Below, piece after piece: positions 774-57,405 of a DNA stretch of 64,000 bases. The DNA lies in the NCBI GenBank assembly GCA_003220675.1, contig QHTD01000055.1, positions 18,722 through 82,721 of the forward strand, written 5' to 3'. The notes beneath the pieces were generated by a model. It had not been told where the DNA came from. It saw nothing but the letters and a program-made list of their open reading frames with translations, and made no database searches. This DNA is from Candidatus Rokuibacteriota bacterium (GTDB taxonomy: Bacteria > Methylomirabilota > Methylomirabilia > Rokubacteriales > CSP1-6). Position 1 is the first letter of the stretch; each line of letters opens with the position of its first letter. A program made the position numbers and the translations under genes.

Positions 774-962
774 CTACCCCTTCCTCTCGCGGAGCACCGT
801 GTAGACGCGCGCGAGATTCCTCCGGGCCTGGCCCAGCCGCGACGGGTTCTTGGCCACGCCCATCGAGAGCTGGAACCGCAGCGTAAAGATCTCCTCGCCG
901 AGCTCGCGCGCCTTCTGCGTGAGCTCCTCGTCGGAGAGATCGCGCCACTTGCTCGCCTTCAT
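774..962 (-). CDS. rpmC: 50S ribosomal protein L29
   Basis: 62-aa [34 protein letters not shown]... is L29-like; GAGGAG Shine-Dalgarno upstream. Confidence 0.93.
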
Positions 963-1030
963 CGCCGACGCTCCTCGAACGCGCGCCCCGCGTGCCGCGC
1001 CAGAGGCGCCGTCCCGGCTCGGGCCGCCAT
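959..1030 (-). CDS. hypothetical 23-aa junction-bridging ORF (rplP/rpmC spacer)
   Basis: ATG at 1030-1028 overlaps the rplP TGA (TGATG). Reads [23 protein letters not shown]. Its TGA at 961-959 overlaps the rpmC ATG (ATGA). No evidence of expression. Confidence 0.25.
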   Translation of the reverse strand: MAARAGTAPLARHAGRAFEERRR

Positions 1031-1446
1031 CAGAGCGTCCGGGTGCGCATCACGAACTTCGTCGCGATGGCCATCTTCTGCGCGGCCGTCCGGAACGCCG
1101 CGCGCGCCACGTCCTCCGGCACGCCCTGCATCTCGTAGATGATCCGCCCGGGTTTCACGACGGCCACCCACTCCTCCGGGTTGCCCTTGCCCTTGCCCAT
1201 CCGGGTCTCGGCCGGCTTCTTCGTCACGGGCTTGTCGGGGAAGATCCGGATCCAGATCTTGCCGCCGCGCTTGAGGCTCCGCGAGAGCGCGACGCGCGCC
1301 GCCTCGATCTGCCGGTTCGTCACCCAGCCCGGCTCGAGCGCCTTCAGTCCATACGCGCCGAACGCGAGCGTCGCGCCACGCTGCGCGGTCCCCTTCATCC
1401 GCCCCCGCTGGGCCTTCCGGTACTTGACGCGCTTGGGCATCAGCAC
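1030..1446 (-). CDS. rplP: 50S ribosomal protein L16
   Basis: 138-aa [22 protein letters not shown]... is L16. Confidence 0.97.
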
Positions 1447-1458
1447 GCGAGAGCTCCC

Positions 1459-2103
1459 TCACGCTTCCGCCGGCGCGGCGCGCAGCACTTCGCCCTTGAA
1501 GATCCAGACCTTCACACCGATCGTCCCGTAGGTCGTGTGGGCGGTCGCGAGCCCGTAGTCGATGTCCGCGCGGATCGTGTGGAGCGGCACGCGGCCGTCG
1601 CGGTACCACTCCTTGCGCGCGATCTCGCCGCCGCCCAGCCGCCCCGCGCATGCGATCCGGATGCCGTCGGCGCCAAGGCGCAGCGCGGACGTGACCGCCT
1701 TCTTCATGGCGCGGCGGAACGCGACACGCTTCTGGAGCTGGAGCGCGACGTTCTCCGCCACAAGCTGGGCGTCGAGCTCGGGGTGGATGACCTCCTCGAT
1801 GTTGAGGTAGATCTCCTTGGCCGTCCGCGCCTGCAGCTCGTTCTTCAGCTTCTCCACCTCCGAGCCCTTCCGTCCGATGATGATGCCCGGCCGAGCGGTC
1901 GAGATCGTGATCCGCGCCCGGTTGGCCGAGCGCTCGATGTCGATCTTGGAGATGCCCGCGTGGTAGAGCTGGTCCTTGATGTAGCGCCGGATCTTCACGT
2001 CCTCGTGCAGCAGGCCCGCGTAGCCCTTCGTCGCGAACCAGCGGGAGCTCCAGGTCCGCGTCGCGCCGAGGCGGAAGCCGATCGGATGCGTCTTCTGGCC
2101 CAT
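1459..2103 (-). CDS. rpsC: 30S ribosomal protein S3
   Basis: 214-aa [16 protein letters not shown]...WSSRWFA... is S3 with a KH domain. Confidence 0.97.
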
Positions 2104-2105
2104 CT

Positions 2106-2636
2106 CTATCTCTTCTCCTTGGACTTGGGACGCTTGGACTTCCCGGCGCCCTTGGCCGCCGCCGTGGTCCTCGGCCGGGCCGCGGCGCGCTCCTTCGTGG
2201 CGGCCGACGCACCCGAAGCCGCCGGCGCGCCAGCCGGCCCGGCCTGCCGTGCGGCCGGCGCGCTCTCGCGGGGCGGCGGGACGGGCCGCGCGGCGCCGTT
2301 GGTCTCGTCACTCACCCCGATCGTGAGATGGCTGGACCGGTGCCGGATGAAAAAGGCGCGCCCCATCGCGCGCGGCTGCACGCGCTTCATCGAGGGTCCC
2401 CCGTCGGCCACCGCGTGGACGACGCGGAGGTCGTCGAGGTTGCGCACCTGGTGGTTGTGCTCGGCGTTGGCGATCGCCGACCGGAGGACCTTCTCGACGA
2501 TCCGGGCCGCGGCGCGCGGCGTGTACTGGAGCGTCGCCAGCGCCTCGCCGACCGACTTCCCGCGAATCTGGTCGAGCACGAGCCGCGCCTTACGAGCGGA
2601 CACGCGGACGAAGCGGGCCCTCGCGAGCGTACGCAT
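2106..2636 (-). CDS. rplV: 50S ribosomal protein L22 with a long Ala/Pro/Lys-rich C-terminal tail
   Basis: 176-aa ORF. The first ~110 aa are L22-like ([23 protein letters not shown]...). About 65 extra low-complexity residues end in [11 protein letters not shown]. Confidence 0.93.
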
Positions 2637-2640
2637 GGCG

Positions 2641-2934
2641 CTACGTCTTCCCCGTGGGCGAGGTCGCGGCCTTCTCGGCCGCGCCGTGCGCCTTGAACGT
2701 GCGGGTCATCGCGAACTCGCCCAGCCGGTGGCCGACCATGTTCTCGGTGACGTAGACCGGGATGAACTTCTTGCCGTTGTGGACGGCGAGCGTATGGCCC
2801 ACGAACTCCGGCGCGATCGTCGTGCGGCGCGACCAGGTCTTCAGCACCTTCTTCTGGCGGCTCCGGTTCAGCTCCTCCACCCGCGCCAGGAGGGTCTCGT
2901 CGATGTACGGCCCCTTTTTGAGCGAACGCCCCAT
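2641..2934 (-). CDS. rpsS: 30S ribosomal protein S19
   Basis: 97-aa [19 protein letters not shown]...[29 protein letters not shown] is S19. Confidence 0.97.
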
Positions 2935-2943
2935 GGCCGGTTC

Positions 2944-3768
2944 CTATTTCCTCCGCCGCGTCACGATGTCGCGGTCCGAGGGCCTCGCCCCGCGGCGGGT
3001 CTTGTAGCCCTTGGTGGGCTTGCCCCACGGGGTCATCGGGTGGTTGCCCTTGCCTTTGCCCTCGCCGCCGCCCATCGGGTGGTCGACAGGGTTCATCACC
3101 GTACCGCGCACTGTCGGGCGGAAGCCGAGCCACCGCACCCGGCCCGCCTTGCCGATCGACACGTTCTCATGATCGAGATTGCCCACCTGGCCGATCGTCG
3201 CCATGCAGGCGACCGACACCATCCGCACCTCGCCCGACGGGAGCTTGAGGGTCGCCCGCTCGCCCTCCTTCGCCAGGAGCTGCGCCTGAGCGCCAGCGCT
3301 CCGGCACATCTGCGCGCCGCGGCCCGGCTGGAGCTCGACGTTGTGGACAAGCGTGCCGACCGGGATGTTGCGGAGCGGCAGCGCGTTACCAGGCAGGATG
3401 TCGGCCTGCGGCCCGGACATGACCGTGTCACCCACCTTGAGCGCGAGGGGCGCGATGATGTAGCGCTTCTCGCCGTCGCGGTAGTGGAGCAGCGCGAGCC
3501 GGGCGGAGCGGTTGGGATCGTACTCGATCGCCGCCACGCGGGCCGGGACCCCGAACTTCTCGCGCCGGAAGTCCACCGTCCGCAGCATCCGTTTCGCCCC
3601 GCCGCCGCGGTGGCGGACGGTGATCCGCCCGTACGTGTTGCGCGCGCTCGTCCGCCGCTTCGGCTCGAGCAGGCTCTTCTCCGGCTCCTTCTTGGTGATC
3701 TCCTCGTTCGTGACGTACGTGAGGTACCGGCGGGCCGGCGAGGTCGGCTTGAGGGTGCGGATTCCCAC
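2944..3768 (-). CDS. rplB: 50S ribosomal protein L2
   Basis: The L2 sequence ([13 protein letters not shown]...GGGEGKGKG...) lies in the 2944..4245 ORF. I place the start at the GTG at 3768-3766, with GAGGGAG upstream. The longer ORF would run through rplW and the repeat array. Confidence 0.94.
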
Positions 3769-3773
3769 GGCGC

Positions 3774-4067
3774 TCAGGCTCCCTCGACCAACTCGATCTT
3801 GTGACCCGGCTGGAGCTTCACGATCGCCTTCTTCCAGTTCGCTCGCCGGCCCTCGAAGCGCCCCATCCGCTTGAGCTTCCCCTCGAACGACGCGGTCCGG
3901 ACCGACGCGACCTTGACGTTGAACACCGCCTCGACAGCGACGCGGATCTCGACCTTGTTCGCATCCGGCCGCACCTTGAACGCGACGGTGTTCTGCTCTT
4001 CCTTCTGGCGCATGCTCTTCTCGGTCATGAGTGGGCGGATCAGGATCTCGCGGGCCGCGCGGGTCAT
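3774..4067 (-). CDS. rplW: 50S ribosomal protein L23
   Basis: 97-aa [35 protein letters not shown]... is L23. Confidence 0.95.
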
Positions 4068-4306
4068 TGTAGCGGGCCCCGCGAGGCCGGAACCATCGGT
4101 GGGTGGCCCGAGAGGCGGCGCGCTCCGGCTCCGTTCCGCTTGCCGCTCTCCATTCCATCGGACCCCCGCGAGGCCGGAACCATCGGTGGGTGGCCCGAGA
4201 GGCGGCGCGCTCCGGCTCCGTTCCGCTTGCCGCTCTCCATTCCATCGGACCCCCGCGAGGCCGGAACCATCGGTGGGTGGCCTGCCGTCGGCACGCGCAG
4301 CTTCAT
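4064..4306 (-). CDS. hypothetical 80-aa junction-bridging ORF across the repeat array (rplD/rplW spacer)
   Basis: The ATG overlaps the rplD TGA (ATGA at 4306-4303). Reads [41 protein letters not shown]...ASRGPLQ. Its TGA overlaps the rplW ATG (ATGA at 4067-4064). The 87-bp repeat period equals 29 codons. Confidence 0.3.
4077..4282 (-). repeat. Perfect tandem array, 87-bp unit x about 2.4, member of the junction repeat family
   Basis: The motif gcgaggccggaaccatcggtgggtggcc recurs at 4081, 4168 and 4255 (period 87). Units 1 and 2 are identical base for base. The array fills the normally tiny rplD-rplW spacer. Confidence 0.9.
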
Positions 4307-4932
4307 CCCGCCAACGCCTGTTCCAGCGCCTGGAGCGCGGCGCGATCGCACACCACGCGCCGCGCCCTCAGTAATTGGTAGACCGAGACATGCGCCGGCG
4401 TCTCGACGATCAGCCACGGCACATTGCGCGACGCGCGCGCCAGGTGCCCGTCGAGCTCGTGAACGACCAGGAGCGTCGGCTCGCCCTTGAGCCCGAGCGC
4501 ACCGAGCTGCGCCACGAGGGACTTGGTCTTGCCGTCGGCGACGTCGAGCGCCTCGATCACGGCGAGTCCGCCGTCGGCGATCCGCGCCGCGACCGCGGCT
4601 CGCAGCGCCTCTCGGCGCATCGCGCGCGGCAGGTCCTGCTCGTAGCTGCGCGGCTTCGGACCGAAGGGCTTCCCGCCGCCCTTCCACTGGGGCGCGCGGA
4701 TCGAGCCCTGACGCGCGCGACCGGTCCCCTTCTGTTTCCAGGGCTTCCTGCCGCCGCCCGAGACCTCGCTGCGGCCGCGGGTGGCGTGAGTGCCCGCGCG
4801 CCGGTCGGCCAGCTCGCGCGTGACCGCCTGATGGAGCAGCGGCACGCGGATCTCGACGCTGAAGACGTCGCCCTTGAGCTCCATCGTCCCCGCCTGCTTG
4901 CCCGTCGCGTCTAGGACCGGTACGGTCGGCAT
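4303..4932 (-). CDS. rplD: 50S ribosomal protein L4
   Basis: MPTVPVLDATGKQAGTMELKGDVF...GGGRKPWKQKGTGRARQGS... is L4. The ATG at 4932 lies 2 nt after the rplC stop. Confidence 0.95.
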   Translation of the reverse strand: MPTVPVLDATGKQAGTMELKGDVFSVEIRVPLLHQAVTRELADRRAGTHATRGRSEVSGGGRKPWKQKGTGRARQGSIRAPQWKGGGKPFGPKPRSYEQDLPRAMRREALRAAVAARIADGGLAVIEALDVADGKTKSLVAQLGALGLKGEPTLLVVHELDGHLARASRNVPWLIVETPAHVSVYQLLRARRVVCDRAALQALEQALAG

Positions 4933-4934
4933 GG

Positions 4935-5609: not shown

Positions 5610-5860
5610 CAGCTTATTCGGAGGGGGCCTCGACGGCCCCGACCTTCTCCACCACTGGGGGAGGCGGCGGCAAAGCCGCCGCTCGAAGGCCCGGCCGCAG
5701 GACGATCAACACGGCCCAGATACGAGTCGGCGAGGGGCCGCGAGTCCAAATGGCGAGCATCGCGAGGCCCGAGGGAGGAGCCGACCGGAGCGTACGCGGT
5801 TGTACGTGAGGATCGGCGACGACCGAGAACGAAGCGAGGCGACGCCAGTTGGACTCGCAT
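5609..5860 (-). CDS. hypothetical 83-aa junction-bridging ORF (rpsJ/rplC spacer)
   Basis: ORF-track entry 5609..5860. Its ATG shares one base with the rpsJ TGA (TGATG), and its TGA shares one base with the rplC ATG (TGATG). Ends ...GRRGPLRIS. Low-complexity sequence; expression unknown. Confidence 0.3.
   Translation of the reverse strand: MRVQLASPRFVLGRRRSSRTTAYAPVGSSLGPRDARHLDSRPLADSYLGRVDRPAAGPSSGGFAAASPSGGEGRGRRGPLRIS
5616..5690 (-). repeat. Divergent copy of the junction repeat family (terminal module)
   Basis: In the gene direction, GCCGCCGCCTC...GGGGCCGTCGAGGCCCCCTCCGAATAA aligns by eye with the family end GCGCGCCGCCTC...GGCCTCGCGGGGCCCGCTACAATGA. Confidence 0.35.
5740..5858 (-). repeat. 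119-nt inverted-repeat (hairpin) element directly after the rpsJ stop
   Basis: Arms gcgagtccaaatggcg (5740-5755) and cgccagttggactcgc (5843-5858) pair at 15 of 16 positions around 87 nt. The interior holds a nested stem CCGAUC/GGUCGG and a CGUAC/GUACG hairpin. Confidence 0.6.
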
Positions 5861-6180
5861 CAGAGCTTGATCTCGACGTCGACGCCGGCGGGCAGGTCGA
5901 GCTTCATCAGCGAGTCCACGGTCTGAGGCGTGGGATCGACAATGTCGAGGAGTCGCTTGTGGGTGCGCATCTCGAACTGCTCGCGCGAGGTCTTGTCGAC
6001 GTGTGGGCTCCGCAGCACGGTCCAGCGGTTGATGATCGTCGGCAGCAGCACCGGCCCCGAGACGCGGGCGCCCGTCCGGCGTACCGTCTCCACGATCTCC
6101 TTGACCGACCGATCAAGCAGCTGATGATCGTAGGCCTTCAGGCGGATGCGGATTTTCTGATCGGTGGTCAAGGTCGCCAT
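5860..6180 (-). CDS. rpsJ: 30S ribosomal protein S10
   Basis: 106-aa ORF ...[31 protein letters not shown]... is S10. Confidence 0.97.
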
Positions 6181-6183
6181 GCG

Positions 6184-7377
<1,194 letters not shown>

Positions 7378-7421
7378 CCCTCACTTCCTCCCGTTGGCAG
7401 TCACGATTGCGACAGTCGAAG

Positions 7422-7497
7422 TGGAGCCCATGTCCGGGATTGAACCGGAGACCTCGTCCTTACCAAGGACGCGCTCTGCCGACTGAGCTACATGGGC
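7422..7497 (-). tRNA. tRNA-Thr (anticodon GGT)
   Basis: The reverse complement GCCCATGTAGCTCAGTCGGCAGAGCGCGTCCTTGGTAAGGACG...GGTTCAATCC...GGGCTCCA folds as a cloverleaf. Anticodon loop TTGGTAA; encoded CCA. Confidence 0.9.
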
Positions 7498-7526
7498 GAA
7501 CGAAAAACTCGCGGGCCCAAAATTCC

Positions 7527-7601
7527 TGGAGCGGGAAACGGGATTCGAACCCGCGACCCCCAGCTTGGAAGGCTGGCGCTCTGCCGCTGAGCTATTCCCG
7601 C
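7527..7601 (-). tRNA. tRNA-Gly (anticodon TCC)
   Basis: The reverse complement is GCGGGAATAGCTCAGCGGCAGAGCGCCAGCCTTCCAAGCTGGGGGTCGCGGGTTCGAATCCCGTTTCCCGCTCCA. Anticodon loop CTTCCAA. Confidence 0.9.
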
Positions 7602-7631
7602 CCCTCCGAGTCACGTGTGCGTCAACCGAGA

Positions 7632-7717
7632 TGGTGGGGAGGGGAGGATTTGAACCCCCGAAGGCGTACGCCAGCAGATTTACAGTCTGCCCCCTTTGGC
7701 CACTTGGGTACCTCCCC
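7632..7717 (-). tRNA. tRNA-Tyr (anticodon GTA), long variable arm
   Basis: The reverse complement is GGGGAGGTACCCAAGTGGCCAAAGGGGGCAGACTGTAAATCTGCTGGCGTACGCCTTCGGGGGTTCAAATCCTCCCCTCCCCACCA. 86 nt; anticodon loop CTGTAAA. Confidence 0.9.
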
Positions 7718-7799
7718 GAATCCGCCGGCACGCGATGAGAACCCCTCGAATCTCGAGTGCATGGCTCGGCTCGCCTAGTGGCTGCGCCTCGCACTGCCA

Positions 7800-7874
7800 T
7801 GGCGCTGGCGGGAGGATTTGAACCCCCGACCCACTGCTTACAAGGCAGTTGCTCTGCCCCTGAGCTACGCCAGC
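7800..7874 (-). tRNA. tRNA-Thr (anticodon TGT)
   Basis: The reverse complement is GCTGGCGTAGCTCAGGGGCAGAGCAACTGCCTTGTAAGCAGTGGGTCGGGGGTTCAAATCCTCCCGCCAGCGCCA. Anticodon loop CTTGTAA. Confidence 0.9.
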
Positions 7875-7888
7875 ACAGACAAAATTTC

Positions 7889-7917
7889 ACTCTAATTGCG
7901 AAGCTTCGTTGAGTCAA
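7889..7917 (-). promoter_or_regulatory. Candidate sigma70-type promoter for the tRNA-tuf-S10 transcription unit
   Basis: The minus strand reads TTGACT, a 17-nt spacer, then TAGAGT in an unusually AT-rich patch about 15 nt upstream of tRNA-Thr(TGT). The -35 box overlaps the rlmB stop codon. Confidence 0.45.
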
Positions 7918-13633: not shown

Positions 13634-14804
13634 CCTTCGACTCCGCGCCCTGCTCGCCGAGGCTCCGGATGAGCGACCGGAGCAGGAAGGACCGTTCGGC
13701 GCCCTCGAGGATCGTCACGAGCCGCTCGTAGATCGTCGGGTCGGCGATGAGCGCGCCGATCGTCCCCTCGCCGTCCTTGACCTTCTCGCTGATCGCCTTG
13801 AGGTTCGTCACCGCGACCTTCAGGTCCTGCACGGCCCCACGCAAACCGCCGTCGTCCCCGTCAGCCACGAGCGCACCGAGCGCGCCGCGCCCCCCGGCGA
13901 CCCGGTTGGACACGTCGCGGAGGTTCCGCGTGACGGTCCGGAGGTTCTCGAGCGTCTCCGTATACTTCGGGTCGAAGAGGAGCGCCGGGAGCATGCCCTC
14001 CTCGGCGCCCGGACGGTCGATCAGGCGCCCGACCCGGTCCATCGCCGCCGCGAATCGCTTCGCGGCGGCGGTCCCGTCTGGCGAGAGGAGCACGCCCGCG
14101 GCGCCCTGGCCCTCGGCCACGCGATCGACGAGCTTCTGCGTCGTCGTGACCGCCTCGTTCAAGCGCTTGAGCGCCACCGGCTCCTCGAACAAGAGGGCGT
14201 GAGCCCAGCCACGCCCGTGCTCGACTTGATCGACGACGCGGCTGATCTTGTTGACCGTCGTCGAGACTTCCGCGACGAGCTTCGCCCGGTTCACATCCTC
14301 GACCGTCTTGCGAAGCGCCGCGACGAGCGCCGCGGCGTCCCTCGTCATGTCGGCGCCCTGCGTCAGCACACGGGCGAAGTCGCTCGGGTCGCGCGCGGCG
14401 AGGACCTCGCCAGGCTGGAGGGGCGGGGTCGCGGTCGTTCCCACCGTGACCTCGACCACCTTGTCGCCGAGCAACCCCTGCGTCTCGATGCGCGCGATCG
14501 AATCCTTGCGGATGCGGTCGGCGTAGCGCCGGGCGATGTTGAGGTCGACCCGCACCTTGCCGCCAGGCTGGCCCGGCAGGTGCACGCCTCCGACGCGGCC
14601 GATCTGCACGCCGGCGAGCCGGACCGTCGCGCCTTCCGTGAGCCCGGCGACCTCGGTGAAGTCGGCGTGGATCGTGTAGCGCGCCTCGAAGAGCCGCGCC
14701 CGCGCGCCGAGAGCGTACACCATACCGAGGAAGGCGGCGAGCGCCACGAGGACAAATAGGCCGACGCGGAACTTCACGGCGAGCTCGCGTTGCTCCTCAC
14801 TCAT
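13614..14804 (-). CDS. mlaD: MlaD/Mce-family substrate-binding protein of an ABC lipid transporter
   Basis: 396-aa ORF with one N-terminal TM helix, then an MCE domain (YTIHADFTEVAGLTEGATVRLAGVQIGRVGGV) and a long helical C-terminal region. It follows mlaE-mlaF. Confidence 0.8.
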   Translation of the reverse strand: MSEEQRELAVKFRVGLFVLVALAAFLGMVYALGARARLFEARYTIHADFTEVAGLTEGATVRLAGVQIGRVGGVHLPGQPGGKVRVDLNIARRYADRIRKDSIARIETQGLLGDKVVEVTVGTTATPPLQPGEVLAARDPSDFARVLTQGADMTRDAAALVAALRKTVEDVNRAKLVAEVSTTVNKISRVVDQVEHGRGWAHALLFEEPVALKRLNEAVTTTQKLVDRVAEGQGAAGVLLSPDGTAAAKRFAAAMDRVGRLIDRPGAEEGMLPALLFDPKYTETLENLRTVTRNLRDVSNRVAGGRGALGALVADGDDGGLRGAVQDLKVAVTNLKAISEKVKDGEGTIGALIADPTIYERLVTILEGAERSFLLRSLIRSLGEQGAESKGDSTRR

Positions 14805-14863
14805 CGCCTCACCTCGCCTTCGGCTGCGGCTCGCACTGCCATATTCATCGCCTCACCTCGCCT
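14801..14863 (-). repeat. 19-bp direct duplication of the mlaF/mlaD junction, creating a 15-aa bridging ORF
   Basis: tcatcgcctcacctcgcct occurs at 14801-14819 and 14845-14863. The ORF at 14848..14801 reads MNMAVRAAAEGEVRR. It has its own copy of the SD, and its TGA overlaps the mlaD ATG. Confidence 0.7.
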
Positions 14864-15596: not shown

Positions 15597-15602
15597 AGGG
15601 CC

Positions 15603-16364: not shown

Positions 16365-16368
16365 CCCA

Positions 16369-16875: not shown

Positions 16876-16881
16876 CGTCCC

Positions 16882-18302: not shown

Positions 18303-18437
18303 TTATTGTAACGGGGTCCGCGAGGCCGCCACACTCCGGGGGTGGCCTGATCCAGGCGCGACCCGGCTCCCTTCCTCTCCCGCCCTCACGCCGGGCATCC
18401 GCGAGGCCGCCCCACTCCCCAACGCCCTTTGCGTCAT
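18303..18437 (-). CDS. hypothetical 44-aa junction-bridging ORF (hisA/hisF spacer)
   Basis: The ATG overlaps the hisA TGA (ATGA at 18437-18434). Reads [44 protein letters not shown]. Its TAA at 18305-18303 directly abuts the hisF ATG. Confidence 0.3.
18313..18428 (-). repeat. Junction repeat family copy (H-C-H) filling the hisA-hisF spacer
   Basis: The plus strand reads ggggtccgcgaggccgccacactccgggggtggcctga ... cggctcccttcc ... gcgaggccgccccac. This is the same module order as 4077-4282, 21715-21830 and 51908-52015. Confidence 0.7.
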
Positions 18438-19156: not shown

Positions 19157-19794
19157 CGGGCGCCACCCTTCACGATCGCCGCGAAGTTCTCGAGCAGCCG
19201 GAGCCCCCAGCGCTGGCTCTTCTCCGGGTGGAACTGGGTCGCGTAGATCCGCCCCTGCTCGATCGCCGCGGCGAATGTGACCCCGTAATCGCACCACGCC
19301 GCGCGAAGGATCGGGCGACCCGGAGCCGGGCTCGCGGCCCCCGCGACAACGGGGTAATAGGAGTGGACGAAGTAAAAGCTGGCCCCCGGCGGGATCCCCT
19401 CGAAGAGGCGCAGGTCGCCCGCGTGGCGGACGCGGTTCCAGCCCATGTGCGGGACTTTCCGGCCCGGCGGGAACCTCTGCACCAGACCCGGGATCACGTC
19501 GAGGCCGCGCCCCTCGCCGAACTCCTCGCTCGTCGAGAACAGGAGCTGGTAGCCCAGACAGATGCCGAGAAAGGGCCGGCTCCCGTCCAGCGCCCGCCCG
19601 AGCGCCGGCAGGAGCCCCAGGCGCTCGAGGTTCTCCATCGCGTCGTGGAACGCCCCGTCGCCGGGGAGCACGACGGCGTCCGCCTCGTCCACGGCCCGCG
19701 GATCCTGGGTCACGACCGCCGGGATGCCGACGCGGGCGAACGCCTTCTCGACGGAGCCGAGGTTGCCCCGACCGTAGTCGACGACGGCGATCAT
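19153..19794 (-). CDS. hisH: Imidazole glycerol phosphate synthase glutaminase subunit
   Basis: MIAVVDYGRGNLGSVEKAF...FLGICLGYQLLF...THSYY-like motifs. I place the start at the ATG at 19794. Confidence 0.95.
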   Translation of the reverse strand: MIAVVDYGRGNLGSVEKAFARVGIPAVVTQDPRAVDEADAVVLPGDGAFHDAMENLERLGLLPALGRALDGSRPFLGICLGYQLLFSTSEEFGEGRGLDVIPGLVQRFPPGRKVPHMGWNRVRHAGDLRLFEGIPPGASFYFVHSYYPVVAGAASPAPGRPILRAAWCDYGVTFAAAIEQGRIYATQFHPEKSQRWGLRLLENFAAIVKGGAR

Positions 19795-20404: not shown

Positions 20405-21768
20405 TCGCTCCTCCCTGGGTCGTTCCCGAGCCGTAGCTCGGCCGCGCGCCCGTGCCCGGCGAGCCCCTCGATCCGCGTGAGCGTCCTGAGATGGGGCGCG
20501 GCGGCGGCGAGCCCGCGCAGCGAGTACTCGATGACGCTCGAGCGCTTGACGAAATCCTCTGTGCCGAGCGGCGACGCGAAGCGCGCCGTGCCCGCGGTTG
20601 GGAGGACGTGGTTGGGACCCGCGACGTAGTCGCCGACCACCTCCGGGGTGTGGCCGCCCACGAAGACCGCTCCCGCATGGCGGACGCGCGGCACGAGAGC
20701 CGCGGGGACGCTCACCATCAGCTCGAGGTGCTCCGGCGCCAGGCGGTTGGCCAGCTCGACCGCGTCGTCGAGCGACGCCACGCGGATCAGCGCGCCGTTG
20801 GCCTCGAGTGCCCGCGCGGCGATCTCGCGGCGCGGCAGCGTGGCGAGCTGGCGCTCGAGCGCCGCCGCGACGCGCGCCAACAGGTCCGCCGCGTCCGTGA
20901 TGCAGAGCGCGCGGGCCATCGGGTCGTGCTCCGCTTGCGCGAGCATGTCGGCCGCCACCCACGCGGGATCGGCGGCGCCGTCGGCCACGACGACGATCTC
21001 GCTCGGCCCCGCCACCATGTCGATGCCGACCTCGCCGAACACGCGCGCCTTCGCCAACGCCACGTAGATGTTCCCGGGGCCGACGATCTTGTCGACACGG
21101 CGGATCGTCGCCGTGCCGTACGCGAGCGCCGCCACCGCCTGGGCCCCGCCGAGGCGATAGCCCTCGGTGACGCCGGCGAGGCGGGCGGCGCCGAGTATCG
21201 CGGGCTCGACGCGGCCCCCGGGGCCCGCCGGCGTCACGAGCACGATCTCGCGGACGCCCGCGACGCGCGCCGGCACCGCGGTCATCAACACCGTGGACGG
21301 GTATGCCGCGCGCCCCCCTGGCGCGTAGATCCCCACCCGGTCGAGCGCCCGGACCTCCTGGCCGAGGACGGAGCCGTGCTCGTCGGTGAGGCGCCACGAC
21401 TTCGGCGCCGCCACCGCATGATAGCGCTCGATCCGCTCCGCCGCGTAGGCCAGGGCCGCGCGGACCTCGGGCGCGAGCCGTCGCTCCGCCGTCTCGAACT
21501 CGTCCGGAGTGATTACGAGCTCCGTCGGCGTCGCCGCGGTGAAGCCGTCGAAGCGCGCGGTCAGCTCGAGGAGCGCCGCGTCGCCGCGGGCGCGCACGTC
21601 GGCCAGGATCCGGTCGACCGCCCGGTGGATCTCGGGTGGGACGGCCGCCGGCGAGCGCGCGAGCGCCTCGACAACGGCACCAAGGCCGAGCTGCCGCGCG
21701 TCGATCACGCGGATCGGGTGGGCTGAGACGAGAGGCGAGTCGGCTCCGTTCCGCTCGTCGCTCTTCAT
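20401..21768 (-). CDS. hisD: Histidinol dehydrogenase; first ~17 codons derive from the junction repeat
   Basis: HisD body (...AAYPSTVLMTAVPARVAGV...QAEHDP...). The called ATG at 21768 lies inside the repeat ([18 protein letters not shown] parallels [18 protein letters not shown]). The true start may be further downstream. Confidence 0.9.
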   Translation of the reverse strand: MKSDERNGADSPLVSAHPIRVIDARQLGLGAVVEALARSPAAVPPEIHRAVDRILADVRARGDAALLELTARFDGFTAATPTELVITPDEFETAERRLAPEVRAALAYAAERIERYHAVAAPKSWRLTDEHGSVLGQEVRALDRVGIYAPGGRAAYPSTVLMTAVPARVAGVREIVLVTPAGPGGRVEPAILGAARLAGVTEGYRLGGAQAVAALAYGTATIRRVDKIVGPGNIYVALAKARVFGEVGIDMVAGPSEIVVVADGAADPAWVAADMLAQAEHDPMARALCITDAADLLARVAAALERQLATLPRREIAARALEANGALIRVASLDDAVELANRLAPEHLELMVSVPAALVPRVRHAGAVFVGGHTPEVVGDYVAGPNHVLPTAGTARFASPLGTEDFVKRSSVIEYSLRGLAAAAPHLRTLTRIEGLAGHGRAAELRLGNDPGRSE

Positions 21769-21830
21769 TCCAACGCCCCTGGGGCCGCCACACTCGGTGG
21801 GTGGCCTGAGACAGTCGCTGGGTGGCGCCG
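21715..21830 (-). repeat. Junction repeat family copy absorbed into the hisG 3' end and hisD 5' end
   Basis: The plus strand reads gggtgggctgagacgagaggcgagtcggctccgttccgctcgtcgctcttcattccaacgcccctggggccgccacactcggtgggtggcctgag. The core ggctccgttccgct is identical to the 4130 copy. Confidence 0.65.
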
Positions 21831-22457
21831 TGCGCGCCCCATCTCCTCGATGAGACCGGTCACCCGCGCGTGCTCGGTCTTCATCGACGCGCGGTTCACG
21901 ATGACGCGGGCCGTCGAGCGCGTGATCTCCGCGACCTCGACCAGCCCATTCACGCGTAGCGTCTCCCCCGACTGGACCAGATCCACGATACGCTCGGCGA
22001 GCCCCACGAGCGGCGCCAGCTCGACGGAACCGTCGAGCCGCACGATCTCGACCTGGACACCGCGGTTGGAGAAGTAGGCCTCGGTGAGCCGCGGGTACTT
22101 GGTGGCCACCCGCACCCACGACCACTTCGACGGGTCGTCACGCTCCCAGAGCTCTCGCGGCTCGGCAACGACGAGGCGGCAGAAACCGAACCCCAGATCG
22201 AGCGGCTCGTACACGTCCGGCTCCTGCTCGAGAAGGATGTCCTTGCCGACGATCCCGAGATCCGCGGCGCCGTAGAGGACGTACGCCGGGATGTCGGCGG
22301 GCTTCAGGAACAGCACGCGCAGGTCGCGCTTCGGGTCGGTGAAGATCAGCCTGCGCGAGTCCTCGTCGATCCCCTCCACGCCAACGTCGCGCAGGAGCAC
22401 CAGCGCCGGGTCCAGCAACCGGCCCTTGGGGAGCGCGAGCGTGAGCACGTCTTTCAT
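21765..22457 (-). CDS. hisG: ATP phosphoribosyltransferase, short form; last ~22 codons derive from the junction repeat
   Basis: [22 protein letters not shown]...[15 protein letters not shown]... is HisG. The C-terminal ...[21 protein letters not shown] is repeat-encoded. ATGA overlaps with murA and hisD. Confidence 0.9.
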
Positions 22458-36390: not shown

Positions 36391-36412
36391 CGATCGGGCG
36401 CGCGGCGCGCGG

Positions 36413-36490
36413 TCATCGCCCCCGCAGGCGCTTGGCGAGGCCCGGGCGGTCGGTCATCACGATATCCACGCCGAGGTCGATCCGCGTGCT
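36413..36490 (-). pseudogene. Relic C-terminal tail of a second glycerophosphodiester phosphodiesterase, in frame behind the ugpQ stop
   Basis: The 25 codons after the ugpQ TGA read [25 protein letters not shown] then stop. This parallels the ugpQ end LVELGVDVLTSDRPDVARRVLGRAP but is only about two-thirds identical at the DNA level. Confidence 0.55.
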
Positions 36491-39053: not shown

Positions 39054-39074
39054 CGCGGGTGGCCGTCCCGCCCC

Positions 39075-40445: not shown

Positions 40446-40461
40446 CACGCGCGCGACGGTC

Positions 40462-42899: not shown

Positions 42900-42908
42900 C
42901 CCTCGGCG

Positions 42909-45862: not shown

Positions 45863-47734
<1,872 letters not shown>

Positions 47735-47740
47735 CGCGTC

Positions 47741-47770
47741 ATGCTAGCGAGAGGTCGCTCTGGGTGTCAA
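47741..47770 (-). promoter_or_regulatory. Candidate sigma70-type promoter giving a leaderless or near-leaderless nuoL mRNA
   Basis: The minus strand reads TTGACA, an 18-nt spacer, then TAGCAT. The -10 box ends 6 nt before the nuoL GTG, and no Shine-Dalgarno lies between them. Confidence 0.35.
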
Positions 47771-47809
47771 GCAAGCGCCCGGCCGGCAGCATGGTATCAT
47801 TCAGTTCTC

Positions 47810-49213: not shown

Positions 49214-49306
49214 GGGGCGCGTCGGAGGATCGAGGAGCGCCACGGCTTAGCCGGGGTGCTCCGAGCGTTGGGGGGCTTGGGGGGCCATCTCGGGGCCCCC
49301 CATTTC

Positions 49307-49972: not shown

Positions 49973-49996
49973 CCCTCGCCCTCCCGGGCAGGGATT

Positions 49997-51888: not shown

Positions 51889-51907
51889 CAGTTGTGGCGA
51901 GGTCCGC

Positions 51908-52015
51908 GGGGCCGGTGACACTCCCGGGTGGCCTGAGCCAGGTGCGAGCGGCTCCGTACCGTTATCACCATCGCTCTAAGCCCCAAGGCCGGTCGCACTC
52001 CCAGGCCAGTGCACC
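51908..52015 (-). repeat. Junction repeat family copy in the PKS-methyltransferase spacer
   Basis: The plus strand reads ggggccggtgacactcccgggtggcctgag ... gcggctccgtaccgtt ... aaggccggtcgcactcccaggcc, the same H-C-H order and orientation as the other copies. Confidence 0.6.
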
Positions 52016-52029
52016 ATTCGCCATCCCCG

Positions 52030-53055: not shown

Positions 53056-53124
53056 TCGACCTTCCTTCCCTCGAGGCTTCGCGTAAGATGAGAGCACTCC
53101 GAGCATACTGCGAGGGTCGAGACC

Positions 53125-53649
53125 ATGCCACTGTTCAGCTTCGAGGGAAAAAGCCCGAAGGTCCATCCGTCCGCCTTCGTCGCGCCAACCGCGGTGCTCG
53201 TCGGCGACGTCACGGTCGAGGAGAACGCGTCCGTGTGGTACAACGCCGTGCTCCGCGCCGACTTCAACCCGATCGTCGTCCGCCGGGGCGCGAACGTGCA
53301 GGATTGCGCCGTCGTGCACGTCACGCCGCGCCAGGGCACGGAAGTCGGAGCGGGAGCCACGATCGGCCACAACTGCACGGTCCACGCGGCCACCCTGGGC
53401 GAGGAGTGTCTGATCGGGAACGGGGCGACGGTCCTCGACGGGGCCCGCGTCGGGGCGAGAGCGATGGTGGCTGCGGGAGCGCTCGTGACACCAGAGACCG
53501 AGATTCCCGACGGGATGCTCGCGATGGGCACGCCGGCGAAGATTCGCGGGCCCCTCGCCGGCACGCCGGCCGAGTACTGGGTGCGCGTCAACCCCGAGGC
53601 GTACCAGGCGCTCGCCCGGCGCCACCGGGCGTCCGTCAAGCCCAGCTGA
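53125..53649 (+). CDS. Gamma-carbonic-anhydrase-like / left-handed beta-helix (hexapeptide) protein
   Basis: 174-aa ORF MPLFSFEGKSPKVHPSAFVAPTAVLVGDVTVEENASVWYNAVLRAD... is YrdA/PaaY-like. Confidence 0.88.
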   Translation: MPLFSFEGKSPKVHPSAFVAPTAVLVGDVTVEENASVWYNAVLRADFNPIVVRRGANVQDCAVVHVTPRQGTEVGAGATIGHNCTVHAATLGEECLIGNGATVLDGARVGARAMVAAGALVTPETEIPDGMLAMGTPAKIRGPLAGTPAEYWVRVNPEAYQALARRHRASVKPS

Positions 53650-53653
53650 CGCC

Positions 53654-54235
53654 ATGGCGATCAAGCGGATCGCGTTCCTCGTGTTCCCACGGCTGACGCT
53701 CCTCGACTTCGTCGGCGCCTACGACGCCCTGCGGCGGATCGCGGCGATGTCCATCGACCCGGCTGTGACGCACCGGATCATCGGCACCGAGCCCGAGATC
53801 ATCGATGAAACAGGTCTCGTGATGAAGCCCGACGCGGTGTACGAGGACCTCGCGTCCTTCGATCTGCTCTACGTGCCCGGAGGCTTCGGCACGCGGACCC
53901 TGATGGACGACAGGCACCTGCTCGACTACCTCAAGACGTGGGGCTCGGAGCGTCCGCTCGCCTCGGTCTGCACGGGCGCACTGCTGCTCGGGCAAGCGGG
54001 GTACCTTCGCGGCAAGCGGGCGACGACGCACCACCGCGCGTTCGATCTCTTGCGCCCACTCTGCCGCGAGGTCGTGACGGACCGGCGCATCGTGGACGAG
54101 GGACAGGTCGTGACCGCGGGCGGCGTCGCCTCCGCGCTCGACCTCGGGCTCTACTTGGTCGAACGGTTTTGGGGCCTCGCGGCGCGCGAGAAGATTGCCG
54201 CCCAGATGGAGTATCGCGCGTACTCCGCCGTCTGA
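53654..54235 (+). CDS. DJ-1/PfpI family protein
   Basis: 193-aa ORF with IAFLVFPRLTLLDFVGAYD and the nucleophile-elbow context LASVCTGALLLGQAG. Confidence 0.85.
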   Translation: MAIKRIAFLVFPRLTLLDFVGAYDALRRIAAMSIDPAVTHRIIGTEPEIIDETGLVMKPDAVYEDLASFDLLYVPGGFGTRTLMDDRHLLDYLKTWGSERPLASVCTGALLLGQAGYLRGKRATTHHRAFDLLRPLCREVVTDRRIVDEGQVVTAGGVASALDLGLYLVERFWGLAAREKIAAQMEYRAYSAV

Positions 54236-54267
54236 GCGAGGCGGCGGTTCGAAAGGAGAGCGTCGTG

Positions 54268-54696
54268 ATGATCGATCCCGCCGTCCTGACCGCGCATCAC
54301 AAGGGCTGTCTCCCCGAGCTCTTGGGCATGCGCTTCGTGGAAGCGACGAAGGACCGCGTGGTGGCCGAGCTCGCGGTCCGCGACGACCTCAAGACCATCG
54401 GCGGCAGGCTCCACGGCGGCACCCTCATGGCCCTCGCCGACACGGTCGCCGCCACGGCCACGTTCCTCAACCTACCGCCGGGCGCCGGCACGACGACGCT
54501 CGAGTCGAAGACCAATTTCTTCGCGGGGGTGCAGGAGGGCCTGGTACGCGCCACCTCCACGCCGCTCCACCGGGGCCGGACCACCATGGTGTGGGAGACG
54601 CGCGTCACCGACGCGTCGGGACGCCTGCTGACGCTGACGATCCAGACCCAGATGGTCCTCAGCGCCCCTGGAACTTCGGCGGCCGCTTCTCCTTGA
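54268..54696 (+). CDS. PaaI-family hotdog-fold thioesterase
   Basis: 142 aa from the ATG at 54268 (AGGAGAG SD): ...GRLHGGTLMALADTVAATA...TLESKTNFF... is the PaaI motif. Confidence 0.85.
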   Translation: MIDPAVLTAHHKGCLPELLGMRFVEATKDRVVAELAVRDDLKTIGGRLHGGTLMALADTVAATATFLNLPPGAGTTTLESKTNFFAGVQEGLVRATSTPLHRGRTTMVWETRVTDASGRLLTLTIQTQMVLSAPGTSAAASP

Positions 54697-55354
54697 ACGC
54701 GGCGACGCCCTCGGCATGGTCGGCGGTCTGGCGGACAATCGACATGTGCGAGCTGACGAGGTCGAGGTGCGTCCTGAGGTCGAGCTTGAGGCTCTGGTAG
54801 ACGAGGCGCTTGATCATGCGGATCGGGATCTGTGGGCCGTCGGCAATCTGCCGTGCCAGGGCGTAGGTCACCTCCTTCAGCTGCGCGTCCGGCACCAGGC
54901 GCTGCACGATGCCGAGCCGGTGGGCCTCGGGCGCCTCGATGAAGTCGGCAGTCCACAGGAGCTCGAGCGCCCTGGCCGGCCCCACCAGGCGGGGCAGAAA
55001 AAACGTATCGCCGTCGCCCGGCACGAGGCCCACGCGCACGTAGCCCGTGGAGAAGCGGGCCGACTCCGCGGCCACGCGCATGTCGCACATCACGCACATG
55101 CCCATTCCCGCGCCGACCGCGAGCCCGTTGACCATCGCGATGACCGGCTTGTCCATCGCCTCCAGCGCCTTTGGCACTCGGTGGACGCCCTCCCACAGGC
55201 TGTTCTTACCGTCGAGCGCGCTCGGCTCACCCTGCCGCATGCGTCCCACGTCGCCGCCCGAGCAGAACGCGCGGCCGGCGCCGGTGACGACGACGACGTT
55301 CACGCTGTCGTCGGCCTGGGCCTCGCCGAGCGACTTCGCCCAGGCGTCGATCAT
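54659..55354 (-). CDS. Enoyl-CoA hydratase/isomerase family protein, apparently N-terminally truncated
   Basis: The crotonase core is present (VVVTGAGRAFCSGGD...VIAMVNGLAVGAGMGM). The first ~30-35 residues seen in full-length crotonases are missing, and there is no SD. Confidence 0.7.
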   Translation of the reverse strand: MIDAWAKSLGEAQADDSVNVVVVTGAGRAFCSGGDVGRMRQGEPSALDGKNSLWEGVHRVPKALEAMDKPVIAMVNGLAVGAGMGMCVMCDMRVAAESARFSTGYVRVGLVPGDGDTFFLPRLVGPARALELLWTADFIEAPEAHRLGIVQRLVPDAQLKEVTYALARQIADGPQIPIRMIKRLVYQSLKLDLRTHLDLVSSHMSIVRQTADHAEGVAAFKEKRPPKFQGR

Positions 55355-56507
55355 CCCCGCGGTGGATATTGCGCAGGATTTCCGACGTGCCGGCGCGAAT
55401 GCCGCTCGCCCGCGCCAGCAACTCGTAGAACTCCCACTGCCCGTCGTCCGGCGCCCAGGGCGAGCCGGGGGCGATCTGCGAGTAGGGACCGATCACCTCG
55501 GTGGCGGTCTGCGCCAGGTCCTGGTCCACCTGGCTCCAGAAGAGCTTGGAGGTCGAGCCCTCTGGCCCGGGTGCGCCCCCGCGCAGGATGTTCGTCAGGC
55601 TCCGGTAGCCGTTGAGCTGGAGCGCCTGCTCGCTGGTCCAGAGGCTGGCGACCTTCTGGCGCACGATGGGGTCGGCGCTCTTCTTCTGCTGCTGGACCAG
55701 GCGGACCAGGCGGTGGAGCGCGTTGCGGAGCGATATATGTCGGATGAAGGTCAGGAGGTCTCTCTCGTATGCCAGCGTGGTGATCGCGACGCTCCACCCC
55801 TCATCGAGTCTCCCCACAAGGTGTTCCGACGGTACGCGGACGTTGTCGAAGAACACCTCATTGAACTCCGCCTCGCCCGTGATCTGTCGGAGCGGCCGGA
55901 CGGTGATGCCCGGCGTCTTCATGTCCACGAGGAGGAAGCTGATGGACTTGTGCTTGGGAGCTTCTGGACTGGTCCGCACGAGGAGGAAGCACCAGTCGGC
56001 GACGTGGGCCATGCTCGTCCAGACCTTCTGGCCGTTGACGACGAAGTGGCCGTCGTCGTGCTCCGCGCGGGTTTGGAGGTTGGCGAGGTCCGAGCCCGCG
56101 TTGGGCTCGGAGAAGCCCTGGCACCAGAGCTCCTCTGCGGTCAGGATCTTCGGCAGGAAGCGCCTCTGCTGGGCCGGCGTCCCGTGCTTCATGAGCGTCG
56201 GCCCGAGCATCGAGATGCCGCCGCGGTTCACGAACTGGGGCGACTCGGCGCGCGCCATCTCCTGGTAGAGGATGACCATCTCGACGATCGACGCGCCGCG
56301 CCCGCCGAACTCGCGCGGCCAGTCCATGCCGACGTAGCCCGCCGCGTGCATCGTCTTCTGCCAGGCGCGGAGCCTTCGGACCTCGTCGCGGTCGGCCCGC
56401 GAGGACGCGAACGCACGCCCGCGGAGATCGTCGGGCAGGTTCGTCTCGAGCCAGTGCCGAACCTCTTTGCGAAACTCCTCTTCCTGCTCGCTGAAGTCGA
56501 AGTTCAT
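55227..56507 (-). CDS. Acyl-CoA dehydrogenase family protein with an aberrant 3' end
   Basis: MNFDFSEQEEEFRKEVRHW...CQGFSEPNAGSD...IRAGTSEILRNI, then 43 Arg-rich codons read out of frame through the ECH gene instead of the usual short IAERxLGLP-type end. Confidence 0.78.
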   Translation of the reverse strand: MNFDFSEQEEEFRKEVRHWLETNLPDDLRGRAFASSRADRDEVRRLRAWQKTMHAAGYVGMDWPREFGGRGASIVEMVILYQEMARAESPQFVNRGGISMLGPTLMKHGTPAQQRRFLPKILTAEELWCQGFSEPNAGSDLANLQTRAEHDDGHFVVNGQKVWTSMAHVADWCFLLVRTSPEAPKHKSISFLLVDMKTPGITVRPLRQITGEAEFNEVFFDNVRVPSEHLVGRLDEGWSVAITTLAYERDLLTFIRHISLRNALHRLVRLVQQQKKSADPIVRQKVASLWTSEQALQLNGYRSLTNILRGGAPGPEGSTSKLFWSQVDQDLAQTATEVIGPYSQIAPGSPWAPDDGQWEFYELLARASGIRAGTSEILRNIHRGDDRRLGEVARRGPGRRQRERRRRHRRRPRVLLGRRRGTHAAG

Positions 56508-56514
56508 GGCCGCC

Positions 56515-57312
56515 TCACCACATGACGCATCCGCCATCGACCATGAGCGCCTGACCCGTGATATACCGGGCCTCGTCCGAGGCGAGGAACACCGCTGCCG
56601 CGCCGATGTCCTCCGGCTCCTGCTCGCACTTCATCGGCACGATGTCGGCGACGCGCTTCTCGAACACCTGCCGCGCCGTCATGCCTTTGAACGCCGGGTT
56701 GGTCTCCGCGATATGGGCGGCGAGCTTCTGCCAGAAGTCGGTCCACAGGACGCCGGGGCAGATCGCGTTGACGGTGATCCGGTGCGGCGCCAGCTCCTTG
56801 GCCACGACGCGGGTGAAGGTGATCACGCCCTGCTTGGCCACGCTGTACGGCGGCATCGTCACTGCCGCGAGCGGCCCCGCGATGGACGCGATGTTGATGA
56901 TCCGCCCCGCCTTCTTCTCGATGAAATACGGCGCGATCGCCTTGCACGTGAGAAACACCGATTTCGTATTGACCGCAAAGGCGCGGTCCCAATCTTCTTC
57001 AGTGTTGTTCGTGAACGGCATGCCGGGGGTCGACCCCGCACCGGCGTTGTTGACGAGGATGTCGATCTTCCCGAGCGTCTCGCGCGTGCGGTCGATCATG
57101 GCCTTGACGTCCGCGGAGCTCGTCACGTCCGCCTTCATCGCGACGACTTTGCGCCCGAGCGCTCTGACCTCGCTGGCGACCTTCTCCGCGTTCAGCACCT
57201 GGATGTCCGGGATCGCGATGTCGGCACCCTCGCGCGCCATCGCGAGCAGGATGCCGCGCCCGATGCCGCTGCCACCACCCGTCACGACGGCCACCTTGCC
57301 GGCGAGTCGCAT
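56515..57312 (-). CDS. Short-chain dehydrogenase/reductase (SDR)
   Basis: From the ATG at 57312 (AAAGGAG SD): MRLAGKVAVVTGGGSGIGRG..., NNAG and the YSVAK catalytic motif. Confidence 0.9.
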   Translation of the reverse strand: MRLAGKVAVVTGGGSGIGRGILLAMAREGADIAIPDIQVLNAEKVASEVRALGRKVVAMKADVTSSADVKAMIDRTRETLGKIDILVNNAGAGSTPGMPFTNNTEEDWDRAFAVNTKSVFLTCKAIAPYFIEKKAGRIINIASIAGPLAAVTMPPYSVAKQGVITFTRVVAKELAPHRITVNAICPGVLWTDFWQKLAAHIAETNPAFKGMTARQVFEKRVADIVPMKCEQEPEDIGAAAVFLASDEARYITGQALMVDGGCVMW

Positions 57313-57330
57313 GCGGATCTCCTTTGTGGC

Positions 57331-57405
57331 GGGGTCCCCGAGCACGGTCGGCGCGGTGGGTGGTCTGAGCGCGGCGCGCTCCGCCTCCGTCCGTACTCTA
57401 TAATC
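57331..57405 (-). repeat. Partial junction repeat family copy between SDR and the IlvD/Edd gene
   Basis: The plus strand reads ggggtccccgagcacggtcggcgcggtgggtggtctgagcgcggcgcgctccgcctccgtccgtactctataat and aligns with the 4090-4150 and 18313-18380 copies. The gene-direction end ACCCCGCCACAA lies 14 nt before the SDR ATG. Confidence 0.5.

Follow-up and report, generated by a model that had tools for sequence, protein, structure and literature searches.

Repetitive extragenic palindromes (REPs; REPs and the bacterial interspersed mosaic elements, BIMEs, are mobilised by RAYT transposases) are imperfect palindromes that usually lie after stop codons, in either orientation. Rickettsia palindromic elements (RPEs) are palindromic, mainly intragenic, and tolerated in frame, and the Correia, ERIC and BOX miniature inverted-repeat transposable elements (MITEs) carry terminal inverted repeats or stem-loops; we know of no relation of the latter three to start codons or reading phase. 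Closest in behaviour to the repeats described here are the interspersed repetitive units of mycobacteria (MIRUs), which, as outlined in PMC12548453 (citing Supply 1997), insert at start codons and contain an internal open reading frame (ORF) coupled at -4 nt, with a proposed minimal effect on expression. ATGA and TGATG overlaps between genes are themselves established sites of termination-reinitiation coupling (PMC6728339). We analysed a stretch of 64,000 nucleotides from a Candidatus Rokuibacteriota bacterium (contig QHTD01000055.1, positions 18,722 to 82,721; the window), in which a modular repeat family recurs at junctions between genes, and followed this family through related genomes. The founding paper on Rokubacteria gives 8-17% of non-coding DNA and reports no repeats (PMC5712423), and no account of the present family in Rokubacteria turned up when the literature was searched.

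The family probably consists of spreading intercistronic repeats, which would be tolerated because an in-phase mini-ORF inside each of them preserves termination-reinitiation coupling between the flanking genes. As in MIRUs, to the extent that these are described in the source cited above, the units are short direct repeats, single or in tandem and variable in copy number; they lie between operon genes, co-oriented with them and at start codons, and contain an ORF that overlaps the flanking stop and start codons and is coupled via ATGA. The proposed benefit, insertion with a minimal effect on expression, is also the same. This likeness is one of described behaviour and not of sequence, and as the hosts are Rokubacteria/Methylomirabilota, we do not class the family as MIRUs sensu stricto. 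It differs from them in belonging to another phylum, in being modular, with a constant core and tail and a variable or truncated head, and in having a core common to at least 36 species-level assemblies, as opposed to one genus for MIRUs. Additionally, some copies are fused into protein termini or lie antisense inside a gene, and comparative statistics of phase preservation are given for this family. Thus, the family is new, but its behaviour, which matches that of MIRUs, is not new in kind. An original prediction made from the window alone had set this behaviour apart from that described for known REP, BOX, ERIC or Correia elements; as a claim that no known repeat does this, it is contradicted by MIRUs, whose insertion at start codons and coupled internal ORF (-4 nt) are on record (PMC12548453).

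An alignment of 95 copies, from which a family hidden Markov model (HMM) was built, revealed a variable 5' head, an invariant core, and a fixed tail. The core reads GGCCACCC-N-CGG-N6-CCGGCCTCGCGG, or in its fuller form GGCCACCC-N-CGG-N6-CCGGCCTC(G/A)CGG, and the tail reads CCCCGCTACA, in the alignment NCCCCGCT(A/C)CA, most often followed by ATGA. The heads are a 24- or 23-nt short form starting on ATGA, a type of about 45 nt, GGAATGAAgAGCG...CGGAGCCGGGTCGCGCCTCGTCTCA, which had been named the C module in the original prediction (its H module comprises the core), and many truncated versions. Units are 65 nt long in the short form and about 86-87 nt in the long form, inside the 40-100 bp taken as the size range of MIRU-like repeats, and tandem periods of 65, 66, 80, 86 and 87 nt were seen in arrays. 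The precise 3' end of the element, combined with its ragged 5' end, is notable.

A pattern scan of species-representative genomes gave at least 116 blocks of 8 kb around matches, 72 of which held true family copies. The cross-genome counts that follow rest on the matches listed, which comprise at least 123 copies in at least 93 clusters from at least 36 assemblies. Among the 36 listed assemblies (35 species-representative genomes and JBGPIS01), 34 bore the label Rokubacteria, Rokuibacteriota or Methylomirabilota, and the other two were a Binatia and a Vicinamibacterales assembly; the remaining matches, in Streptomyces and others, were without the tail and lay inside coding sequence. Metagenome contigs also contained the family, with a similar junction geometry. 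The gene downstream of the element was co-oriented with it in 76 and opposed in 5 of the 93 listed clusters (binomial p ~2e-17), and 56 of the 93 were placed between two genes that were both co-oriented with the element. In 41 of 76 listed clusters, the ...CGCTACA end ran directly into the downstream start codon (offset 0), and in about 54 of 76 the two were no more than 6 nt apart. Both the common orientation and the ending at the next start codon, predicted from the window, were therefore borne out in independent genomes. A one-strand window was rejected as the cause of the orientation, and the replication strand seems an unlikely one, as the 36 assemblies still gave 76 to 5 relative to the neighbouring gene. 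The downstream genes had A at position +4 in 41 of 50 cases, as compared with 34 of 70 in the background, and only 6 of 39 of them were preceded by a Shine-Dalgarno-like motif, as compared with 27 of 56 window genes.

Of 63 listed units, 44 had their head start and tail stop in one frame (21 expected), and 43 of these had no internal stop. The in-phase units spanned many lengths, from 57 to 102 nt, and compensating indels were found: head/tail offsets of -23/+43 and -25/+41 occurred beside the canonical -24/+42, so that one core is read in all three phases. We then followed a relay through each junction, from the upstream gene to its stop, to a restart codon in the interval from -4 to +9 nt, and so on until the frame of the downstream gene was reached. 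The controls were 102 spacers from the same loci and a random one-base frameshift introduced in silico into the element junctions. The relay succeeded at 50 of 61 element junctions, whereas 37 of the 102 control spacers passed (Fisher 9e-9, or 2.8e-10 when the restart window was narrowed), and its success after the frameshift was about 0.5. As about half of the frameshifted junctions still passed, the criterion is permissive in GC-rich DNA, but the excess over controls is real. In geometry, the first restart was at -1 (NTGA) in 40 of 50 relays and the last one was at -1 in 34 of 39, and the modal mini-ORF had 22 codons. Where position +4 was A, the relay ended on an overlapping NTGA (41 cases); where it was not, nine relays ended on a separate stop 2-5 nt before the start, seven of them TAA or TAG. 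The original prediction had inferred selection keeping the spacers open and in phase. The units and relays counted above (44/63 and 50/61), along with the choice of stop, largely support it, whereas its window-only frame argument, a (1/3)^5 probability for five junctions, is weak: the junctions were picked after the fact, and GC-rich DNA is permissive.

According to the reading that we favour, short, unstructured, direction-specific repeats, specific to Rokubacteria/Methylomirabilota, would spread to operon stop/start junctions and amplify there in tandem. They would land directly upstream of a start codon, typically at a former ATGA or TGATG overlap. Copies would persist because each carries a stop-free frame that starts on an NTGA overlapping the upstream stop; the stop that closes it would overlap or adjoin the downstream start, as ACA-ATGA or ACAATAA-ATG. 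A ribosome finishing gene A would restart, translate a filler of 20-90 codons, and terminate on the start codon of gene B. Termination-reinitiation coupling would thus be preserved, and the C-rich spacer would probably be shielded from Rho. We infer the translation of the mini-ORFs and the coupling from the phase statistics and from the small number of Shine-Dalgarno motifs; mobility, as opposed to another copying process, is likewise the presumed source of the copies. Regarding Rho, the sense strand of the element is unstructured and rich in C (41%, as compared with 29% G); its C/G ratio of 1.43 ranks among the highest 7% of coding windows, and an untranslated element would for this reason resemble a Rho loading site. 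Shielding by mini-ORF translation is consistent with the data.

Several points weigh against this reading. The phylum is uncultured. The relay criterion is permissive at 70% GC, where 36% of control spacers pass, and 11 of 61 element junctions fail it, although some of these failures are gene-calling errors. Distinct head/tail offset classes are about 18 in frame to 13 out of frame, a modest excess, and as the copies in one subfamily share descent, the counts overstate the number of independent events. Tandem periods of 66, 84 and 87 nt in some arrays lead to read-through instead of stop-restart, and one array has a 67-nt period. Inspection of the 8-kb blocks identified no transposase, no target duplication rule, and no autonomous partner. 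Moreover, a relay function would not by itself explain why the core is so extremely conserved from species to species.

In the window, the H pattern GGCCACCCN11CGGCCYCRSGG had 6 exact matches and 8 with up to 3 mismatches, as compared with 1.39 expected from shuffles, and the family HMM found 7 significant copies at 5 sites, all on the minus strand. The copies and their parts are as follows.

4064-4143, 4166-4229, 4253-4310, 18303-18378, 21777-21836, 51890-51963 and 57322-57405, minus strand: copies found with the family HMM.
4064..4306, minus strand: rplD/rplW array, three H cores separated by two C modules.
4283-4306, minus strand: head of the rplD/rplW array, 24 nt, S-type, beginning on the rplD ATGA.
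4253-4282, 4166-4195 and 4079-4108, minus strand: H cores of the rplD/rplW array, from the H pattern and the HMM.
4064-4078, minus strand: tail of the rplD/rplW array, GGCCCGCTACA, then the ATGA that is the rplW start.
18303..18437, minus strand: hisA/hisF element, partial H - C - H.
21716..21836, minus strand: hisG/hisD array, eroded and now part of coding sequence, with the modules partial H, H, C, partial H.
51890..51963, minus strand: copy between a type III polyketide synthase (PKS)-like gene and a methyltransferase gene, C-H, with the tail CGCCACAAC, then the TGATG that is the methyltransferase start.
57322..57405, minus strand: diverged C-H copy in the divergent intergenic region between a short-chain dehydrogenase/reductase (SDR) gene (minus) and ilvD (plus).
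19314..19350, plus strand: remnant in hisH, about 37 nt, tail joined to head, antisense in-frame insertion after FYFVHSYYP.

The H and C modules and their H-C-H layout had been described correctly, and between the downstream end and the start codon there were 0-13 nt at rplW, hisF, the methyltransferase gene and the SDR gene. The rplD/rplW array is crossed by an ORF of 80 codons, from ATGA to ATGA, and its 4077-4282 part makes up 2.4 copies of an 87-nt unit at 100% identity. At hisA/hisF, an ORF of 44 codons starts on the hisA ATGA, and its TAA stop lies immediately 5' of the hisF ATG. The hisG/hisD array encodes the last ~20 residues and stop of HisG, together with the start and first ~18 residues of HisD, and its internal GGAATGA junction now acts as the gene overlap. 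The copy upstream of the methyltransferase gene forms a two-step relay, found under permissive criteria only, and in the SDR/ilvD copy the tail is followed by AGGAG, with the SDR ATG about 12 nt further on. The remnant in hisH gave a weak plus-strand HMM match at 19323-19350. Thus, uniform orientation holds for all 7 significant window copies, but not for this degenerate antisense one. Similarly, siting at cistron junctions holds for rplD/rplW, hisA/hisF and the copy upstream of the methyltransferase gene, but not for the SDR/ilvD copy in its divergent intergenic region or the array inside hisG/hisD.

An 11-nt inverted repeat, 91% complementary (4053-4088), pairs the element tail GGCCUCGCGGG with rplW codons 2-5, CCCGCGCGGCC. 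This pairing places the rplW AUG in a 14-nt loop, and its rplW segment can also pair with every upstream core copy.

Empty sites, looked for at the orthologous junctions of relatives (their loci carry L-labels, such as L027, L100 and L199), were found as ATGA or TGATG overlaps. At rplD/rplW, five relatives have a plain 4-nt ATGA overlap, where the window has 239 nt between two ATGAs. An RplW 100% identical to that of the window, and two others at 88-91%, carry an N-terminal extension that is a translated single short unit; as near-identical RplW backgrounds hold one unit or three cores, the copy number varies at this junction. The single-unit allele was read from the proteins; a look-up for P0001 and P0039 gave no strain-level DNA record. 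The hisA/hisF junction is TGATG without the element in L100, L119, L126 and L131. The window, L120 and L122 have the element there, and in L120 and L122 translation of HisA continues through it as far as its TAA. At hisG/hisD, an ATGA or GTGA without the element was found in L100, L118 and L120, and in the window the array replaced the HisG end and the HisD start. Filled and empty sites compare as ATGA...ATGA, TGA...ATGA or TGA...TAA-ATG, with no single fixed duplication. In L118 (~4090-4205) and L123 (~400-509), the hisA/hisF junction holds different palindromic inserts, e.g., CTCGGAGCGCCacggcttcgccGGGGCGCTCCGAG, and it seems that repeats of several kinds have landed at this junction recurrently.

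Absorption into genes was not limited to the his junctions of the window. The hisH gene of L100 contains, following FYFVHSYYP, two complete copies of 66 nt (5812-5969) in antisense orientation and in frame. The protein is thereby longer by 44 residues (VVAGSARPDP...), and the window HisH retains about 12 residues at the same codon. Altogether, HisG, HisD and HisA each include translated element sequence, as does HisH from the antisense strand, with the frame unbroken. In this it resembles RPEs, which are also in-frame repeats in proteins; it differs from them in that in-frame absorption is a minority outcome for an otherwise intercistronic element. A pair of orthologous sites was also observed in L049 (6340-6431), ...GTTACA-ATGACGCGC, and L027 (2722-2813), ...GCTACA-ACAACCCGC. 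The ATG has therefore been lost in L027, whose ORF continues without a stop across the element and over 700 nt further upstream; two genes may have been fused via it. In relatives with the element, gene callers lengthened RplW by 20-50 residues of element sequence (to 147 aa from 97; proteins P0001, P0015 and P0039; window region 3774-4306), and the window gene call likewise extended HisG, HisD and SDR into element sequence. The repeats cause systematic start-site and fusion errors in annotation (RplW, HisG and HisD; HisA is fused to the element elsewhere).

Among other explanations, the one that survives best, though we consider it unlikely, is that of an ordinary selfish repeat, MITE- or REP-like, whose position and orientation reflect the site preference of an enzyme, e.g., for NTGA or start-codon contexts, and whose phase is a by-product of fixed length in stop-poor GC-rich DNA. 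The nucleotides of the core and tail are near-invariant over the 95 copies, as expected of an enzyme recognition site, and the excess of A at +4 suggests NTGA targeting; the canonical 65-nt unit would be in phase simply by descent, and control spacers and frameshifted junctions often pass the relay test. However, phase is held across many lengths and via compensating indels, where A is missing at +4 a stop of its own lies 2-5 nt ahead of the start codon, eroded arrays remain in frame when absorbed into hisG, hisD and hisA, and relay success exceeds both controls. The family also has no hairpins or terminal inverted repeats of the kind that REP or MITE enzymes use. RNAalifold, with which a consensus RNA structure was sought, gave -1.1 kcal/mol with 3 pairs and no covariation, and single units folded no better than shuffles on either strand (z-scores from -0.5 to +0.8), which rules out a REP-like hairpin. 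No terminal inverted repeats were found in the four units or arrays examined. The units share with REPs and BIMEs that they are short, GC-rich, abundant and extragenic, and their opposite strand begins with TTGT(A/G)(G/A)CGGGG, recalling the GT[AG]G head of REPs; in contrast to these, they lack a consensus structure and lie against start codons, always facing one way. With the Correia, ERIC and BOX elements they have in common that they are small, non-autonomous, multicopy and co-transcribed with their neighbours, but they lack inverted termini and one fixed target duplication. An outward promoter in the tail (TACAAT) was dismissed by reasoning alone, with no promoter scan: the -10-like hexamer overlaps the ATG, and a transcript would begin inside the gene.

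A more far-reaching version of the favoured reading would make the family phylum-wide mobile "relay cistrons" that target the 4-nt stop/start overlap and are copied by an RNA-templated or one-ended process, via an unrecognised machinery that reads the core. Such copying would fit the constant 3' end on the start codon and the variable 5' truncation. Array length would then perhaps be a heritable dial for coupling and subunit stoichiometry (S10, his), and at least two unrelated families would have converged on the relay design. We regard this version as speculative and quite doubtful.

It is very unlikely that the core is a host cis-acting signal, i.e., a binding or processing site in mRNA or DNA (for operon processing, anti-polarity or expression tuning), with the arrays as tunable spacers. 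Such a role would agree with the conservation of the core in at least 36 assemblies while the 6-nt centre and the head vary freely, with the location at essential operons (S10, his), and with the varying copy number at one junction. In close relatives, however, the orthologous junctions function as plain ATGA overlaps with no element, there is no functional relation among the neighbouring genes, and an antisense copy also lies inside a coding region. Moreover, there is no conserved RNA structure, and the element had no Rfam match in the window.

An artefact, either chance ORFs in GC-rich spacers or misassembled repeats, appears extremely improbable. Chance bridging does occur: across four tRNA genes of the window (Thr, Gly, Tyr and Thr; 7378-7913), an ORF of 178 codons runs from a TTGA start to a stop 6 nt before tuf, and this bridging, which must be accidental, shows how easily such ORFs arise in 70% GC DNA. 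Tandem units at 100% identity are also prone to copy-number errors in assembly. Nevertheless, the same junction geometry was found in at least 36 independent assemblies and in metagenome contigs, the pattern count was far above the shuffled expectation, and the orientation bias of 76 to 5 is not one that chance would give. Under permissive criteria, 7 of 21 window spacers of at least 30 nt were bridged (1.8 expected), one of them by this tRNA-crossing ORF; the window alone therefore cannot carry the frame argument, and the frame pattern is convincing only once the cross-genome data are added.

Finally, that the mini-ORFs are small-protein genes for a conserved peptide (...SGHPRS..ASRTPLQ; MTPRAPAAGHPRS...ASRTPLQ), as one frame with a recurring peptide in the window and most copies might suggest, is hardly conceivable and was ruled out by the absence of codon periodicity (entropies of 0.61, 0.49 and 0.54 at codon positions 1, 2 and 3), which places the constraint on nucleotides and not on the peptide, and by the different frames in which subfamilies read the core (-23/+43 and -25/+41); variation in the central 6 nt is also non-synonymous.

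If the relay reading is true, the family would offer many independent natural insertions of filler cistrons between essential genes (at least 93 clusters in at least 36 assemblies), a far larger comparative set than MIRUs for asking how much distance and sequence termination-reinitiation tolerates, and what lets repeats live inside operons. The MIRU strategy would then not be peculiar to mycobacteria, having evolved or spread in an unrelated uncultured phylum, where a second family, with its own Shine-Dalgarno (SD) sequences, would do likewise. The repeats may also account for part of the 8-17% non-coding fraction of these large genomes (PMC5712423). As in natural ATGA/TGATG coupling and synthetic bicistronic designs (PMC6728339; PMC12548453), a short leader ORF would deliver ribosomes independently of a Shine-Dalgarno sequence; the difference is that this leader ORF comes from a dispersed repeat and is chainable (ATGA, 22 codons, ATGA, 22 codons, ATGA).

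The window has a GC content of about 70%, and its minus strand carries nearly all genes. Those flanking the repeats, identified with Pfam, are rpsJ, rplC, rplD, rplW, rplP and rpmC; hisG, hisD, hisA and hisF; genes for an ATP-binding cassette (ABC) ATPase and an MlaD protein; the type III PKS-like and methyltransferase genes; and the SDR gene, ilvD and rho. Homologues of the window RplW and syntenic contigs were labelled Rokubacteria or Methylomirabilota. At the gathering score, Rfam found only four tRNAs in the window.

The five bridging ORFs that had been predicted are all present, but the junctions do not belong to one family. Apart from rplD/rplW and hisA/hisF, they are as follows.

959..1032, minus strand: rplP/rpmC insertion, 71 nt, with a 23-codon ORF from TGATG to ATGA.
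5610..5859, minus strand: rpsJ/rplC insertion, 250 nt, bridged by an 83-codon ORF, outside the H/C family.
14801..14855, minus strand: second-family unit at the ABC ATPase/MlaD junction, GTGCGAGCCG...GGCGAGGTGAGGCG-ATGA, with its own SD-like sequence.

Neither 959-1032 nor 5610-5859 matched the family HMM. The more divergent copies that had been proposed at 5616-5690, 59162-59255 and 963-1029 were not recovered either: neither the HMM relaxed to E<10 nor blastn against all the collected loci placed them, or other long spacers, in the family. If related to the C module at all, the 71-nt rplP/rpmC insertion is a degenerate form of it; in L197, L198 and L201, this junction is an ATGA overlap without the insertion. 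The rpsJ/rplC insert is homologous to a 138-nt insert in L199 (380-517); four relatives have spacers of 9-18 nt at this junction. The window and L199 inserts both contain GCGTACAAC(C/T)GCGTACGC, and that of the window has two GC-rich hairpins, GGCGGCtttGCCGCC and GGGGCCgtcgaGGCCCC. A further spacer of 100 nt (36391-36490), which belongs to neither repeat family, is bridged by a 35-codon ORF from GTGA to ATGA.

The second family, unrelated to the H/C family, consists of 44-55-nt units, GTGCGAGCCG...GGCGAGGTGAG(N)C(N)-[A/G]TGA, each of which has its own SD-like GAGGTGAG and a start/stop overlap. The 14801-14855 junction holds one extra unit, with a relay ORF of 15 codons. The family was found in tandem in L030 (minus, near oriented 6183-6280), L096 (2101-2210) and L199 (4843-4962). 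In L199, two of its units span rplP to rpmC and are crossed by a 38-codon ORF from TAGTG to ACAATGA.

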